Below, in pieces: positions 2,251-11,313 of a stretch of 64,000 nucleotides of DNA. This stretch comes from an uncultured Clostridia bacterium (lineage in GTDB: Bacteria; Bacillota; Clostridia; UBA1212; UBA1255): NCBI GenBank assembly GCA_947625435.1, contig CANQOI010000002.1, positions 1,043 to 65,042 of the forward strand. The letters run 5' to 3'. A program made the translations under genes and the position numbers. Each line of letters begins with the position of its first letter. The first letter of the stretch is position 1. The notes beneath the pieces were generated by a model. That model made no database searches. It saw nothing but the letters and a program-made list of their open reading frames with translations, and was not told the origin of the DNA.

Positions 2251-2290
2251 ACAGCGAGAAAATCAAGCGATTTTCTCGCTGTTTTGTTTG
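2251..2290 (+). terminator. rho-independent terminator of the ARH gene
   Basis: Perfect hairpin cagcgagaaaat...attttctcgctg followed by ttttgttt. Confidence 0.7.
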
Positions 2291-2686
2291 TATGACGGGC
2301 ATGCCTTTGGTCTGTGGTAAAAGCCAACAAGGGACGCAGTTGCCGACGAACCCCAGAGCGATTCCCAAGGTTTGCTCCTTGAAAAACAGGCGAGAAGAAG
2401 GGATAGCTAAATTGTATCCTTACGAACAAAAACCTGATATAAAGGCGAATACAGCAGATAAGTGCGCCAAGAGTCACGAAGTTCAAAAGGCAACCGTGAC
2501 TCGTAGGCGTAAATAATGAGGGGCGTAGCCCCGAGCGCATGACGAAATATCCTTTTTGTGTAGACCTAAAACATATCACAAATATCCCTGTTTTTCATAA
2601 AATCATGATTTCTTCACATTTTCATCCGCTTGCTTCGATGAATTCTTTTTAACATCCATTCTGAAAACATCATATGAGTTCCTCTA

Positions 2687-2977
2687 TTATATGTTTCTTC
2701 TTTTGTATTTTGCATTAGAATAATCCGTTAGCTTTTCCATTCGTTCCTTCAGCGCGTGTATATTTTCAGATGCGAACAAGGCGATCGACACCTTTAATGT
2801 GTTCAATCGGCGGATATATTCCGTCAATTCATTTTTATACTCGTCGTCTACTCCGGCCAACATTTTTTTCAGGTCAGATTCAAATCTTGCGGCGGTAATG
2901 GAAAATTGTTCGGAAAAATCATTTAAAATGCCGCCTGCCGTATTCAAAGAATCCGTTGTGACGTGTATTTTGTCCAT
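2687..2977 (-). CDS. 96-aa all-helical protein; candidate immunity/partner or WXG100-like protein, last gene of the operon
   Basis: Lies 15 nt downstream of the 427-aa gene. Helical heptad-rich sequence with no TM segment. Confidence 0.4.
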   Translation of the reverse strand: MDKIHVTTDSLNTAGGILNDFSEQFSITAARFESDLKKMLAGVDDEYKNELTEYIRRLNTLKVSIALFASENIHALKERMEKLTDYSNAKYKRRNI

Positions 2978-2992
2978 AAATTATCTTCCCCC

Positions 2993-4276
2993 TTATGTAT
3001 TTGATAACCGTGCCATCATTTCGGAAAAGCATCGATAACTTTCTCCGAAATTGGACTTTACAGCATCCAAAAAATCGGCATCATTCGCTGCATAAGCCTG
3101 AAAGCACTGAGCAAAGAACCGGGAACTCGGGCTGAAAGAAGCCGTTGGAAAATTTGGACGATTTTGAATCTTTCCACCTTTTAATTCTGCAGAAAAACCA
3201 TTTGCGATTTTTTGAATGTTTTTGTCTGCAGATTGTAAATTTCTTGCAATTTCTTTGCCCAACACTTTATCCATGTAAAGTTTATCCTCGGACTGATCCA
3301 ACGCATACAGCCTTCGACCGATGTGAAGCAAAATCTGCCGATCAAAATCAGGATCAGCCGGGTTTAATCCGATAATTTTCAACGTCCTTCCACTTGCGTC
3401 TTTTTGGTAGCCAAACCCGAAATATGCGTTCAGCAATATGATATTGCCCATTTTTTCCATGATGGCGTCACGAAAATCTACATGCAGACCCCGCATGGCG
3501 TGATATAATGCCTCTCTTACCTGTGGGGCATATGGGTTATAGATTCTGTACGCCATGCGTTTCCCGGATTTAAAATCAAAAGTTCCCGATTTTAACCGAT
3601 ATGTTTTTTGCTTGAACTGTGCGTTCGCAGAAGCACGGAAAACAGAAGAATAAGAAACAAAATCAGAGTTTTCATCCGCTGCAAAGGCCGAATCTGCCAT
3701 GTAAAAATCGATTGATGAAAGATAATTTTGCAGACAGGTCAAGACAGAGACTAACGATTGGTTGTTATATGTGATTTCCTCTGCCAAACCGGAGTTTAAT
3801 TTTTTGACTTCTGCGGCGTTTTTCTCTAGAACGTCTATCATCGCAGATAATGCCTTTTGTAATTGCTCGAATTTTTGCTTTTTTTGTTTGATTTCTTTTT
3901 GTAGTTCAACGGATGACTGATAGGACTCAGTCAAGACATCGTACATTTGCCGTGCTTCTTCCATTTTTCTCAAGCAGGCGGATGCGACATCACGGCTATC
4001 TGCGTTATTATACTGCTCGGAATAATACGCCCGTCCAGAGACCGTTTCATCTATGTTGTATTTGATCGACCATGATTTTTTCTGCAAAGATTCATCAAGT
4101 TCAGCAAGCTGAATCATTTGTGTTTCAAGCTTTTCTTTTGCGTCTTCTACAAAGCCTATCATCTCATTGATGTTTGACAATACAGCTTTTGATACAACTA
4201 TCATTTGATTGTATTGATTTTCAGTTTCTTTTGTAAAAGACATAACATAAGAAACTACAGTTGACAGTTCACTCAT
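2993..4276 (-). CDS. 427-aa protein with a ~200-aa helical N-terminal region and a ~220-aa globular C-terminal domain; candidate polymorphic-toxin/LXG-like effector
   Basis: Domain architecture and position (after four small helical proteins, before a small ORF) mimic LXG toxin cassettes. No recognisable catalytic motif. Start overlaps the upstream gene by 8 nt. Confidence 0.4.
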   Translation of the reverse strand: MSELSTVVSYVMSFTKETENQYNQMIVVSKAVLSNINEMIGFVEDAKEKLETQMIQLAELDESLQKKSWSIKYNIDETVSGRAYYSEQYNNADSRDVASACLRKMEEARQMYDVLTESYQSSVELQKEIKQKKQKFEQLQKALSAMIDVLEKNAAEVKKLNSGLAEEITYNNQSLVSVLTCLQNYLSSIDFYMADSAFAADENSDFVSYSSVFRASANAQFKQKTYRLKSGTFDFKSGKRMAYRIYNPYAPQVREALYHAMRGLHVDFRDAIMEKMGNIILLNAYFGFGYQKDASGRTLKIIGLNPADPDFDRQILLHIGRRLYALDQSEDKLYMDKVLGKEIARNLQSADKNIQKIANGFSAELKGGKIQNRPNFPTASFSPSSRFFAQCFQAYAANDADFLDAVKSNFGESYRCFSEMMARLSNT

Positions 4277-4550
4277 CCCGCACCTGCTCGATTCGCATGC
4301 CTAGCACGGCGATTTCCCTGTCGGTTTCCTCGGCATTATAGTTCTTTTTCACCGCCTCTAAACCTCCATGTGAATCCGCCATCATAGCCCATATTTTTTC
4401 AGCGTATATTTTTATGTTTTCATTGAGCTCTGTAAAACTGGCGGACGTAGGATCTGTCCATACCGTTCTCACCTGTTTCAAAGCCCGATCCAGTGCAATA
4501 ATCTGATTACTGAATTCTCCGTATTGTCCATTCATCATGTATTTCCTCAA
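4269..4550 (-). CDS. small helical protein (93 aa), WXG100/Lap-like
   Basis: ~90-aa predicted helical hairpin. Translationally coupled (ATGA overlap) to the neighbouring genes. Confidence 0.45.
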   Translation of the reverse strand: MRKYMMNGQYGEFSNQIIALDRALKQVRTVWTDPTSASFTELNENIKIYAEKIWAMMADSHGGLEAVKKNYNAEETDREIAVLGMRIEQVRDE

Positions 4551-4837
4551 AGCGACAGTTTTGTTCGTGAGCGGATCATTTCTGCCTGTTTTTTGAAATA
4601 TTGCGGATACTTGAACCGTATTGTTTCCATAATTCGGTCGACGGAATTGGTGAGGACTCGAATTTCCTGTAAAATTTTCCCCATCGTTTCATCGTCGCGC
4701 CACTCTAACGAAAGAGTATTCATCTTTTTCATATAGTCATCCATAACGGCTTTTTGTGTGTTGCAATACAAGACAATAAAATCTGCAGTTGTGTCCAGCA
4801 CATGGTCGTCTAAAACCATATTTTCAAACGGATTCAT
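4547..4837 (-). CDS. small helical protein (96 aa), WXG100/Lap-like with a central W-x-D motif
   Basis: LSLEWRDDETMGKILQEI sits where the WXG turn lies in EsxA-like proteins. Confidence 0.45.
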   Translation of the reverse strand: MNPFENMVLDDHVLDTTADFIVLYCNTQKAVMDDYMKKMNTLSLEWRDDETMGKILQEIRVLTNSVDRIMETIRFKYPQYFKKQAEMIRSRTKLSL

Positions 4838-4848
4838 TCAAATTCCCC

Positions 4849-5118
4849 CTAACCTTCGTTGTAGGTGTCAATCCAGCGAATAACCGCCTGACAATACTCG
4901 GACACGGAATCCATCTTTTGTCCGATTTGTCCGATCAAGTCCTGCATTTGCATGGAAAGCTCCAAATAACTGATATAAGCAGGATCTTTCAGGTTTACAA
5001 ATCTGCTGTTTACTTTGTTGTTCAGAGTGTCGGCATTGCGGGAAAGATTTTCATATGCTTCTTTGGAATAATCAATCGCTTTTTGAGCCGCAGTCTTTGA
5101 TAATGTGATTCTTGCCAT
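4849..5118 (-). CDS. small helical protein (89 aa), WXG100/Lap-like
   Basis: All-helical with no TM segment. Same operon. Confidence 0.4.
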   Translation of the reverse strand: MARITLSKTAAQKAIDYSKEAYENLSRNADTLNNKVNSRFVNLKDPAYISYLELSMQMQDLIGQIGQKMDSVSEYCQAVIRWIDTYNEG

Positions 5119-10172: not shown

Positions 10173-10200
10173 AACACACAGAAGCGGAAATACTGTTTGA
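10173..10200 (+). repeat. 28-bp direct-repeat copy B (aacacacagaagcggaaatactgtttga)
   Basis: 27/28 identical to 936-963. Lies in AT-rich non-coding DNA. Confidence 0.7.
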
Positions 10201-10260
10201 TATAAAATATACGCCCCTGCGTTTTTTCAGCAGGCTCAAAACACTGTTATGAACAGAGAC

Positions 10261-10485
10261 TCATTGCTCCGGCTCAGGGATTTCCGCACCGCGTGCGCGC
10301 AGATAAATGTCAATGTCCCGGTTGATATACTGATACCCGGTTGTGTGCAAAACGTCGTAGAACTCACGGATATAATCAAAGACGCCGTACCGCGCAAAGA
10401 TTTCTGCCGCCGCGGCCCCGCTCAGATGCCGGTAATACTTATAGTTCTCCAAGCAAAAAACGGTGAATATTGCTTCTTTGCTCAT
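10261..10485 (-). CDS. DUF3791-like small protein (74 aa)
   Basis: Small helical protein paired with a second paralog and a DUF3990-like gene, as is common in Firmicutes. Confidence 0.45.
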   Translation of the reverse strand: MSKEAIFTVFCLENYKYYRHLSGAAAAEIFARYGVFDYIREFYDVLHTTGYQYINRDIDIYLRARGAEIPEPEQ

Positions 10486-10497
10486 GAGATTTCCCCC

Positions 10498-10743
10498 CTA
10501 AACATCCGGAAAGGTTACTTCTCCGGTACTCAATTCCTGCTCGTATAATGCATAAAGCATATCCGTGCTGTATTGCCAGACTTTGGTTTCTTCCCGTTCC
10601 AGAGCGGCATATAACTTTGACGCATACAATTGCTTGATGGCATCCACTTCGGAAATTTTCCGCTTATCGTTGATCTTCGCAATCAGATCCGCGCTGATAG
10701 TCGGCAGCATCGCCGCAAACTGTTCCTGTCCCATAAATGTCAC
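10498..10743 (-). CDS. DUF3791-like small protein (81 aa)
   Basis: Paralog arrangement upstream of 10261-10485. Conserved-looking KQLYASKLY. Confidence 0.45.
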   Translation of the reverse strand: MTFMGQEQFAAMLPTISADLIAKINDKRKISEVDAIKQLYASKLYAALEREETKVWQYSTDMLYALYEQELSTGEVTFPDV

Positions 10744-10747
10744 TCCC

Positions 10748-11092
10748 CTATCTGACTTTCTGTGATCCGGTGAATTTTAAAAAGGAAAGCGCCTTTTCCG
10801 TGTGAAATGTCCATTGGTCATGCAGAACCTCGGTTTTTAATCTCTTGACCGTGTATTCCGCATCGTATACGCCTGTTTCAAAATATCGTATCGACTGATA
10901 AACGTTATCGTCTGCAACAGGCCCGACGGATTTATTTTCTCTTCGCATTTTGATTTTGGCCCATCGCTCTGCCTGCTCATGAGATGTAGTTGTATAAAAT
11001 CCTGCGCCGAAATCAAGGAAACTGTCTTCCGGCTTTCTTTTCCGTATTTCCGGACACTCGACAAGTTCCGTACTGCCATGATAAAGGATCAT
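10748..11092 (-). CDS. DUF3990-like protein (114 aa) with an N-terminal LYHGS signature
   Basis: Starts MILYHGS, the family hallmark. The H-G-S motif resembles the NAD-binding His-Gly-Ser of PARP-type ADP-ribosyltransferases (inference). Confidence 0.5.
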   Translation of the reverse strand: MILYHGSTELVECPEIRKRKPEDSFLDFGAGFYTTTSHEQAERWAKIKMRRENKSVGPVADDNVYQSIRYFETGVYDAEYTVKRLKTEVLHDQWTFHTEKALSFLKFTGSQKVR

Positions 11093-11313
11093 ACCAGTTC
11101 CTCCGATATCTTATGGATTTCTTTCATACTCATTGATCATCTGCGCGTTCCGCAAAGCCTCATTTTTCACAACAGAACGTATCAGCATGCACTCACCTCT
11201 TGGTCATAGTATGCCACACGTTTTTGCAAAAATCAATATATATGTGTGGTAAAAAAGCATCCCGGGCATTTGACATTTAACAATATTATTAATTACAAAG
11301 AGTATTTTCGGAT

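Follow-up and report, generated by a model that had tools for sequence, protein, structure and literature searches.

A very probably horizontally acquired, AT-rich operon resembling mobile minimal type VII secretion systems in a mosaic accessory region of an uncultured Clostridia bacterium

Introduction

Mobile or minimal type VII secretion systems (T7SS), a computationally described kind of system, consist of operons that combine WXG100 genes with a gene for an FtsK-like ATPase (Zhang et al. 2012, Biol Direct, Table 1 footnote 6; PMC3482391). The Helicobacter pylori HP0062/HP0066 pair has been counted among the examples of mobile minimal T7SS (PMC4978471). In this work we analysed an operon that, judged from its sequence, fits the defining features of these systems. 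It lies in a stretch of 64,000 nt (hereafter, the window) of an uncultured Clostridia bacterium (GenBank assembly GCA_947625435.1, contig CANQOI010000002.1, positions 1,043 to 65,042 of the forward strand). The operon is on the minus strand, from 9851 down to 2687 of the window, and encodes an FtsK-gamma protein, an EccC/EssC-like ATPase, four proteins of about 90 aa, a 427-aa putative effector and a 96-aa protein. It was very probably acquired horizontally, and lies in an accessory region of mosaic composition.

Bell et al. 2024 (PMC11090510) described three-domain EssC homologues associated with CoCoNuT defence loci, active only in their central domain and with an N-terminal coiled coil replacing the FHA and transmembrane regions; these homologues are accompanied by two WXG100 proteins and a coiled-coil nuclease. 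Anantharaman et al. 2012, in the form in which it is cited by Bell et al. (PMC11090510), considered the operon to be a secretion system that is mobile and stands alone. Unlike these modules, every T7SS variant from a to j possesses an ATPase that is bound to the membrane and has four NTPase domains, together with other core components (Garrett et al. 2024, PMC11217815). The mobile minimal modules appear as passing mentions in comparative-genomics papers and have never been characterised experimentally. Compositional islands are themselves ordinary, AT-rich acquired segments being abundant in bacterial genomes. LXG polymorphic toxins with Lap/WXG-like targeting partners were reportedly the subject of the work of Whitney et al. 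in 2017 and Klein et al. in 2024.

Results

The operon is compositionally foreign

Host composition was taken from the window's own host part, of about 52 kb (11631-64000), whose guanine plus cytosine (GC) content is 0.492. Its background genes are ordinary chromosomal genes (PBP1, YfhO, ABC transporters, an HtrA-type protease, a histidine kinase, purH, an aminotransferase and a dockerin protein). A preliminary description of the window had claimed an AT-rich, horizontally acquired block at 2290-11300 and had named whole-window GC profiling as a possible refuter. The GC content of 2290-11300 was 41.8%, compared to 49.4% in the rest of the window, which corresponds to z = -5.6 relative to 174 windows of 9011 nt lying wholly in the host part (mean GC 0.490, standard deviation 0.013, minimum 0.466). 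In a 1-kb sliding profile, GC was 0.40-0.46 over approximately 2.0-11.5 kb and roughly 0.45-0.55 elsewhere, and maximum-likelihood segmentation with two boundaries placed the steps at 2220 and 11360 (log-likelihood ratio 96), near the claimed limits. The AT-rich dip was thus confirmed, and the three GC counts made by hand in that description were exact (17/60, 27/60 and 39/60). The 60-65% GC that it gave for nearby core genes did not hold: the value had been generalised from a single 65% line, whose gene (15232-16494) has 53.3% GC in a host of 49.2%.

Codon usage was compared with that of the 46 background genes (there are no ribosomal-protein genes in the window). The GC content at third codon positions (GC3), pooled over genes, was 0.444 in the island and 0.577 in the background. 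The synonymous-codon score (leave-one-out likelihood ratio) was negative in 12 out of 12 island genes and positive in all 46 background genes (Mann-Whitney U = 552 = 12 x 46, p = 1e-7). Second codon positions (GC2) of the operon genes were also low in GC (0.28-0.35 vs. approximately 0.40). As GC3 and synonymous codon use differ too, the GC dip of the island is not solely an amino-acid effect. The island also stood out in the tetranucleotide check proposed in the preliminary description: the GC-normalised tetranucleotide correlation with the host was 0.53-0.63 in 5-kb windows inside the island and 0.91 ± 0.02 outside it, and for the island as a whole it was 0.55, compared to 0.93 ± 0.02 for host segments of the same length.

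The clearest difference between the operon and the host was the frequency of the dinucleotide TpA, a marker independent of GC. The operon has a TpA ratio of 0.55, the common strong depletion; the host part shows no TpA depletion (ratio 0.98) and over-represents ATAT 2.75-fold and TATA 2.0-fold. This absence of TpA depletion in the host makes foreign DNA easy to detect here. The TpA pattern of the host is unusual among bacteria, and related genomes (L001-L003) have a TpA ratio of 0.72.

Further GC dips at 36-40 kb and 50-52 kb were considered as islands and rejected, as both retain the host k-mer signature. A 401-aa gene without a Pfam match at 35867-37072 (minus strand) has the lowest GC3 of the host part (0.475) and host-like k-mers. 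Its codon score (0.034) is the second-lowest of the host part after that of gene 63129-63944 (0.010), and it may be an older foreign gene.

The accessory region is a mosaic

The region was divided into the following segments (k-mer z values against the host):

1-2223: left flank, from the leucine-rich repeat (LRR) gene to the ADP-ribosylglycohydrolase (ARH) gene; GC 0.545, TpA ratio 0.60, k-mer z -9.0 (k=3) to -8.7 (k=4)
2687-9851: operon; GC 0.416, TpA ratio 0.55, k-mer z -20 to -21
9852-11625: DUF cassette and helix-turn-helix (HTH) gene; GC 0.428, TpA ratio 0.74-0.83, k-mer z -2.2 to -2.4
10261-11092: DUF cassette alone; TpA ratio 0.75, k-mer z -0.4 to -0.6
11631-64000: host; GC 0.492, TpA ratio 0.98, k-mer reference

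The best reading of these compositions, which come from short segments, is that the accessory region is a mosaic, patched together from at least three compositional segments. Neither GC step is a clean edge between foreign and host DNA. On the left, the preliminary description had taken the ARH and LRR genes as GC-rich like the host. The tetranucleotide correlation of 1-2223 with the host was 0.51, compared to 0.84 ± 0.04 for host segments of the same length (z = -8.7), and 1-1047 also differed from the host in its k-mer signature (z = -5.4 to -6.1). The GC content of the ARH gene (0.569) exceeds the maximum of host windows of its length (0.549), and its codon score (-0.033) falls outside the host range. 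L177, a contig from another sample, reaches 1,048 nt past the left edge of the window and is still non-host there (GC 0.473, TpA ratio 0.58). Since the DNA is non-host on both sides of 2.3 kb and also past the left edge of the window, the step at 2.3 kb is an internal seam inside foreign DNA and not a boundary between island and host. The earlier limit of 2290 is the end of the ARH terminator.

On the right, the best single TpA change point in 1-30 kb was 9879, where the operon has its 5' end (start of the first gene, 9851); in the same 1-30 kb scan this marker gave no boundary on the left side. The DUF3791/DUF3990 cassette and the HTH gene were indistinguishable from the host by k-mers, and their codon scores were mildly negative. 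With k-mer z values of -0.4 to -2.4 and TpA ratios of 0.75-0.83, the cassette did not share the signature of the operon, with which it had been grouped, and may not belong to the same acquisition. The DUF3791/DUF3990/HTH segment and the ARH/LRR segment probably come from other sources, or from other times, than the operon.

The right edge was given by synteny at two adjoining genes:

11314-11625, plus strand: Cro/C1-type HTH gene, the rightmost accessory gene (Pfam HTH_26, E = 9e-6); its 3' end overlaps the stop of the next gene
11622-12458, minus strand: metallo-beta-lactamase-fold (MBL) protein, the first host core gene; ancestral synteny ends at its stop codon

The species-representative genomes do not include the window's own species. 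Eight loci of the nearest relatives, from four lineages (L001-L003, L097-L100 and L158; MBL 66-69% identical), share an acyl-ACP thioesterase-MBL gene pair, and in all eight the MBL gene is followed, within approximately 10 nt, by TatD, G5/3D (YabE-like), KsgA and PEPCK. None of TatD, YabE, KsgA and PEPCK has a match in the 64-kb window, and none of the island genes was found in 80 + 80 MBL loci. The likeness to the relatives ends exactly where MBL has its stop codon, at position 11631. It follows that the accessory DNA starts at approximately 11626, includes the HTH gene, which the earlier right edge at 11300 had left out, and reaches leftwards over more than 12.7 kb. An insertion or a rearrangement at the MBL junction is strongly supported by this; synteny does not prove that an insertion was recent. 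In summary, the part of the earlier interpretation that stood is the foreign composition of the operon, and both limits of its 2.3-11.3 kb block had to be changed. The locus shows by example how island boundaries are misplaced when they are drawn from GC alone, with GC-rich foreign DNA read as host and host-like AT-rich DNA lumped with the operon.

Several junctions were reproduced by independent contigs from three other samples. The segment holding the effector gene, the 96-aa gene, an intron remnant, a terminator and the ARH 3' end is present in L178 (99.96% identical), the LRR-ARH arrangement in L177, and the DUF3990-HTH-MBL junction in L095 (identical bar one 20-nt indel) and L096 (100% identical). 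The 20-nt indel of L095 lies in the comparison with 10895-12893 of the window, and in L095 the MBL gene call has a length of 234 aa. At strain level, L177 also differs from the window by a 24-nt in-frame indel in the ARH gene (window 1557-1580; 383 aa vs. 391 aa).

The ATPase and the FtsK-gamma protein

The genes of the operon, all on the minus strand, are as follows, in the order of transcription:

8751-9851: FtsK-gamma winged-helix protein, 366 aa, first operon gene (Pfam FtsK_gamma, E = 6e-22, residues 221-281)
5427-8714: EccC/EssC-like ATPase, 1095 aa (Pfam FtsK_SpoIIIE, E = 1.6e-29)
5130-5411, 4849-5118, 4547-4837 and 4269-4550: four putative WXG100-like helical-hairpin genes, about 90 aa each, their order conserved in sister loci
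2993-4276: putative effector of the polymorphic-toxin type, 427 aa (hairpin residues 2-187; alpha/beta domain 243-427)
2687-2977: 96-aa helical protein, last operon gene (46%, 32% and 26% identical to L082_97, L090_96 and L081_97)

About 74 clusters, at 45% identity or more, form the narrow family of the ATPase; all are unnamed, mostly of 1190-1270 aa and known almost only from metagenome assemblies, and the members come from gut and rumen Clostridia. Beyond this family, similarity drops to EccC, at approximately 30% identity over one fifth of the length. NCBIfam scores were far below the cut-offs (EccCa 120 bits, cut-off 509; EssC 105 bits, cut-off 778). In the comparison of the family profile with the PDB, EccC (4nh0) led with E = 4e-32, and FtsK and conjugative coupling proteins ranked behind EccC and YukB/EssC. 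An AlphaFold2 model (mean pLDDT 73) predicted an N-terminal coiled coil (helices in residues 2-163) followed by three alpha/beta domains. Foldseek matched this model to EccC 4nh0, with its three ATPase domains, over about 1050 columns (E = 3e-24), and to two-domain EssC (D2-D3) and EccC structures (E about 1e-16, TM-score 0.56-0.61). A single Walker A motif (GGTGSGKS, 509) and a single Walker B motif (FVIVDE, 616) are both in the middle domain, so that the model suggests three FtsK-like domains, and only the one in the middle would be catalytic. The count of three comes from the structure model, since hhalign among the sub-domains gave no decision. Domain matches of the ATPase in PADLOC were to the SspH and MADS models.

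Hydropathy, a crude predictor, gave no transmembrane segment in the ATPase (maximum over 19 residues 1.31) and no transmembrane-grade segment in any of the 74 family members (1.95 or less, compared to 2.6-3.1 in membrane-protein controls). Pfam found no FHA domain in the ATPase. Among the operon proteins of the window, no match to the EssA/EssB/EsaA, EccB/D/E or YukD-like families was found in Pfam or NCBIfam.

An orthologue of the gamma protein (36% identity) is encoded upstream of the ATPase in L082, and in P0058 the gamma protein is fused to the ATPase. Other natural fusions of the ATPase join it to LRR_5 repeats, in a cytoplasmic protein (P0023), or to Sel1 repeats (P0026). Being N-terminal additions of a partner or sensor-like type, the gamma, LRR_5 and Sel1 fusions together hint that the ATPase might be regulated by ligand or DNA binding.

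Hairpin proteins and effector

The four hairpin genes, each a family of its own, are found in the same order in L081, L082, L086 and L090; L083 has only two. Three of the four families have a central W-x-D-[DE] turn and the fourth has D-P. The family profile of the 5130-5411 protein matched H. pylori HP0062 (2gts/3fx7) over its full length (E = 2.5e-4), with weaker matches to EsxA/EsxB below, and the 4269-4550 protein matched Pfam WXG100 with E = 0.0027, below the gathering score. PDB searches with the family profiles of two other small proteins gave no WXG match. By size, helicity and central turn, the small proteins would fit a WXG100-like assignment. The hairpin type of the 96-aa protein of 4547-4837 is also the N-terminus of L081_ART353, L086_387, L090_404 and L083_292, including an ADPrib_exo_Tox protein.

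AlphaFold2 predicted, in the effector, a helical hairpin of about 90 residues per arm with pLDDT above 90, and an alpha/beta C-terminal domain with less confidence. Pfam gave no match at E ≤ 0.01, LXG (PF04740) included. In an exhaustive HMMER search there were eight full-length homologues, and about nine proteins shared only residues 1 to approximately 220. At 50% clustering, about 17 representatives make up the distinct small family of the N-terminal module; elsewhere this module precedes Colicin-DNase/WHH, ADPrib_exo_Tox (twice), Endonuclea_NS_2 and metallopeptidase-like domains; the junction with ADPrib_exo_Tox is found in L086. The C-terminal domain carries the signature HxxH...E, with a conserved Glu about 21 residues after HxxH. 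Residues 318-322 of the window protein are HIGRR, and 9 out of 9 homologues have HxxH (HIGHH, HVGHY and similar). This H321R change could have inactivated a metal-binding or catalytic site.

The last gene (2687-2977) follows the effector gene in L082, L090 and L081 too, and its product resembles another hairpin protein. Sister operons end with an ADP-ribosyltransferase (ART) toxin gene followed by a small gene (128 aa in L081, 131 aa in L086), and the sister operon of L082 holds a SUFU-family gene. N-terminal modules with swapped toxin domains, together with these toxin/small-gene ends, give the operon the predicted architecture of a polymorphic toxin system. Immunity candidates within the window are limited to the hairpin-like 96-aa gene and the convergent ARH gene.

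Sister operons in other genomes

In L083/L084 the operon lies between TnsB/TniB/TniQ-type (Tn7-like) genes and a resolvase gene, with ARH and HTH genes directly upstream. In L086-L088 it lies after a tyrosine integrase gene and before a Mob_Pre relaxase gene, in a GC trough of 0.376 between flanks of 0.44-0.50, and in L081 and L090 it is found among chromosomal genes. The Tn7-like parts of L083 are at 2790-7073 and 19923-20624, and a SAM riboswitch match (15991-16077) lies in its operon region. In L090, the sister operon has a Gut-1 RNA (RF01706, 77.9 bits; 20248-20322, minus strand) and a tRNA about 2.3 kb downstream.

The GC content of the sister operons, compared to that of their hosts, was 0.33/0.35, 0.37/0.36, 0.376/0.46 (an island there too), 0.485/0.52 and 0.495/0.50. 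As the GC of the operon tracks host GC (0.33-0.50), the family is not intrinsically AT-rich. The closest relative of the window operon (74% protein and 71% nucleotide identity) is in a contig of 36% GC, and this points to a donor of lower GC within Clostridia. The operon would not yet have drifted to the composition of its present host. Two other sources were considered and rejected. For a phage, viral contigs gave two weak matches (27-32%), PHROG matched only the gamma domain and phage tblastn matches were partial and at most 33.5%; for a plasmid, PLSDB held no close members.

Neighbouring genes and signs of decay

The features that flank the operon are, from left to right:

1-360, plus strand: 3' part of an LRR_5 (BspA-type) gene (Pfam LRR_5, E = 3e-14); frame open at position 1
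770-1054, plus strand: small open reading frame (ORF) overlapping the ARH start; 94 aa as longest ORF, 74 aa as called in L177
1048-2223, plus strand: ARH, 391 aa, with a C-terminal extension (Pfam ADP_ribosyl_GH, E = 1.5e-38)
2240-2293, plus strand: hairpin terminator closing the ARH transcription unit; 18-bp stem, T-tail, -32.3 kcal/mol, z = -8.1 vs. shuffles
2373-2553, plus strand: group II intron RNA remnant, D1-D4 only, 181 nt (Rfam RF02001, 46.8 bits, gathering score 32, E = 5e-7)
9852-10260, no strand assigned: operon upstream region with promoter-like sites, a palindrome and a coding remnant (10139-10200)
10261-11092, minus strand: DUF3990 / 81-aa / DUF3791 cassette (Pfam DUF3990, E = 1.8e-28 in two stretches; DUF3791, E = 1.3e-20)

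The LRR_5 gene is cut by the window edge and is complete in L177, where it encodes 180 aa. LRR_5 genes also follow the operon in L081. The ARH protein is 43-45% identical to the ARH proteins that adjoin the operon in L083-L085, and ARH is a recurrent neighbour of the operon family and a candidate antidote to ADP-ribosyltransferase toxins. The recurrence of ADP-ribosylation across the accessory region (ARH, DUF3990 and the ART toxins of sister loci) makes this role plausible. DUF3990 belongs to the ART clan of Pfam (PMC7955679) and is known as an Rhs toxin tip. Between the LRR_5 and ARH genes there is a small ORF (449-643, plus strand) with the tandem repeat TDFYG[HR]K[LV]G (DNA copies at 530-555 and 584-609); it had no family match.

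The intron remnant has the ARH terminator on one side and the operon's 3' end on the other. In 1-12500 there was no reverse-transcriptase ORF belonging to it, no domain V/VI match at E ≤ 0.1 and, in Rfam, no other intron family. A group II intron as a recurrent neighbour of the operon was rejected, as none was found in five sister loci. The only notable direct repeat, of 62 nt (902-963 and 10139-10200; 77% identical, core 27/28), brackets ARH and the whole operon. As an att site it was rejected, being a coding remnant: read in frame, 10139-10200 is a stop-containing fragment of a paralogue of the small ORF 770-1054.

Upstream of the operon, promoter-like sites were found on the minus strand at 9908-9880 and 10101-10072. 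Between them, at 9986-10001, lies a perfect 16-bp palindrome (GTACCGAATTCGGTAC) that is unique in the window; it is a candidate operator, perhaps for the HTH protein or the gamma-domain protein. The DUF cassette matches the PADLOC candidate defence system PDC-M13 (PDC-M13A/B/C, E down to 6e-34). The DUF3990 gene (10748-11092, minus strand) has lost about 49 central profile positions (approximately 53-101) and may be inactive, the DUF3791 gene being intact. The ATPase has a 94-aa in-frame deletion after residue 110, corresponding to residues 111-204 of P0002 (DFDALVPPVK...FYTYT...), which are conserved in the rest of the family, and the window copy may thus be a defective allele. With the ATPase deletion, the H321R change, the DUF3990 deletion, the intron remnant and the gene fragment, this copy of the operon looks to be decaying.

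Discussion

We interpret the locus as a foreign operon for toxin delivery within an accessory mosaic, and we give this explanation as a whole, function included, a probability of roughly 0.7. The part on origin is held more firmly: it is highly likely that the AT-rich core (about 2224-9851) was acquired from a donor of lower GC. The accessory mosaic would extend from at least 1 kb left of the window to approximately 11626, interrupting the ancestral MBL-TatD junction. The small hairpin proteins would bind the hairpin module of the effector, and a hexameric ATPase would recognise this complex and drive its export, or its hand-over to a translocon encoded elsewhere. Neighbour genes would protect the producer, ARH by reversing ADP-ribosylation. 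Delivery of the toxin by the ATPase, with immunity conferred by neighbour genes, is thus what gene content and homology suggest.

Several observations weigh against this interpretation. No membrane component is conserved in any operon context, and the fold of the effector C-terminal domain was not found, as Foldseek returned generic coiled coils driven by the N-terminal hairpin and the PDB sequence search returned nothing. The WXG100 assignment is drawn from weak profile matches, and the decay lesions from alignments. As to insertion, an empty site in the same species was not found in scans of MBL genes from species representatives and metagenomes (best 68-69% identical), and the comparison is with relatives at 66-69% MBL identity, where a rearrangement breakpoint would look alike. 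The left end of the accessory region lies outside the window, and 1-12.5 kb holds no integrase, transposase, tRNA or flanking att or target-site repeat, the window's only tRNA being at 29.8 kb. No independent contig spans 9.85-10.9 kb.

That same gap, which is the site of the k-mer change point, would suit a chimeric contig of two organisms, as would the metagenome type of the assembly and the coverage of only about 2x of related short contigs. Assemblies of other samples nevertheless reproduce the order operon-intron remnant-ARH (L178), LRR-ARH (L177) and DUF3990-HTH-MBL (L095, L096), and the host-like side carries, at 10139-10200, a remnant homologous to 902-963 of the foreign side, a historical tie between the two sides of 9879; an assembly or binning artefact is hardly credible. 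Another account, without transfer, takes the AT-richness as intrinsic to the operon (coiled coils rich in Lys, Glu, Asn and Ile, weak codon selection, poor expression), in line with its low GC2 and its largely helical or coiled-coil proteins. It is very improbable: GC3 and synonymous codons separate the island fully from 46 host genes, the k-mer signature (GC-normalised) and the TpA signature are different too, equally low GC2 in host genes goes along with host-type GC3 and k-mers, the operon family has 49-50% GC in hosts of about 50% GC, and synteny is broken at the site. An improbable arrangement, though less so, is a single cassette of approximately 2.3-11.3 kb that includes DUF3791/DUF3990 and has native host DNA on both sides (ARH/LRR and MBL). 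The GC change points at 2220 and 11360 bracket it, its 12 genes all have negative codon scores, and the DUF cassette shares its strand with the operon; yet the left flank is non-host (z = -8.7, TpA 0.60), the GC of ARH is above that of any host window, and ARH and LRR_5 recur with the operon in other genomes. On the other side, the k-mers of the DUF cassette and HTH gene are host-like, the TpA change point is at 9879, and the accessory edge by synteny is the MBL stop.

The island could also be the same with another function, namely a cytoplasmic conflict system against phages or mobile elements, in which the soluble ATPase, with its gamma partner or its LRR/Sel1 fusions, would sense DNA or protein of an invader and set free the toxins inside the cell. 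In accordance with this, no transmembrane component is conserved in any context, the partner of the ATPase has a gamma DNA-binding domain and a gamma-ATPase fusion exists, the LRR_5 and Sel1 fusions resemble sensor-NTPase architectures, and the ATPase domain matches the PADLOC SspH and MADS models. Furthermore, the operon is cargo of Tn7-like elements and adjoins a PADLOC candidate defence cassette, and for the related EssC-like/WXG100 module of CoCoNuT defence loci a different mechanism 'appears likely' (Bell et al., PMC11090510). We nonetheless consider this function unlikely, as swapped C-terminal toxins with SUFU-type and candidate immunity neighbours are a hallmark of exported interbacterial toxins (PMC3482391), the nearest solved relatives of the ATPase are the secretion ATPases EccC and EssC, ahead of FtsK, and the family was not found in phages. 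For the ATPase/WXG100-like family as a whole (about 74 clusters), a mobile cytoplasmic conflict system, with a soluble motor guided by gamma or by LRR/Sel1 repeats, hairpin-tethered ART or nuclease effectors and ARH as a safety catch, is similarly doubtful, if anything slightly more so.

Modules of this class combine a soluble EssC-like motor, WXG-like hairpins and swappable toxins, and have no membrane component. Intact relatives of the L082, L086 and L081 types, with ART effectors and candidate immunity genes, and with ARH in other loci, would make the system directly testable in gut Clostridia.

Compared to genomic islands of the Tn7-like or integrative mobilizable kind, the region shares atypical composition, absence at the syntenic site of relatives, conflict cargo and sister copies in Tn7-like and integrase/Mob elements; it differs in having no recombinase, flanking repeat or tRNA at the locus, in its mosaic of at least three segments and in gene decay. 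The effector resembles LXG toxins in its elongated alpha-helical N-terminal module with interchangeable C-terminal toxin domains, in the several genes for helical proteins of about 90 aa immediately upstream and in the candidate immunity-type genes downstream. It differs in having no Pfam LXG match, in the distinct family of its N-terminal module and in the soluble ATPase associated with it.

With canonical T7SS (T7SSa ESX, T7SSb Ess/Yuk and c-j) the operon shares a motor of the EccC/EssC clade, helical-hairpin substrates or partners of small size, and toxins whose N-terminal modules are long and helical (as in LXG) and whose genes stand next to those of small partner proteins. Those systems have further membrane components and usually a YukD-like ubiquitin-fold protein, whereas the window operon has no gene of the EssA/EssB/EsaA/YukD type and its ATPase has three predicted domains and no transmembrane segment.

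The likeness to the mobile minimal T7SS extends to a three-domain EssC/YueA-like ATPase with Walker motifs only in the central domain, the lack of transmembrane helices and FHA, the N-terminal coiled coil, the adjoining small genes for putative WXG100-type hairpins, one family of which matches HP0062 directly, the nearby coiled-coil protein joined to a toxin or nuclease domain, and the occurrence in mobile elements. The window operon is Clostridial, whereas the published notes concern Gram-negative lineages and CoCoNuT loci; its hairpin genes number four to five instead of one or two, and the turn motif is W-x-D-[DE] instead of W-x-G. The window family also differs in carrying its hairpin modules on swapped toxins (ART, DNases) and in its FtsK-gamma protein, separate or fused, and its LRR_5 and Sel1 fusions.

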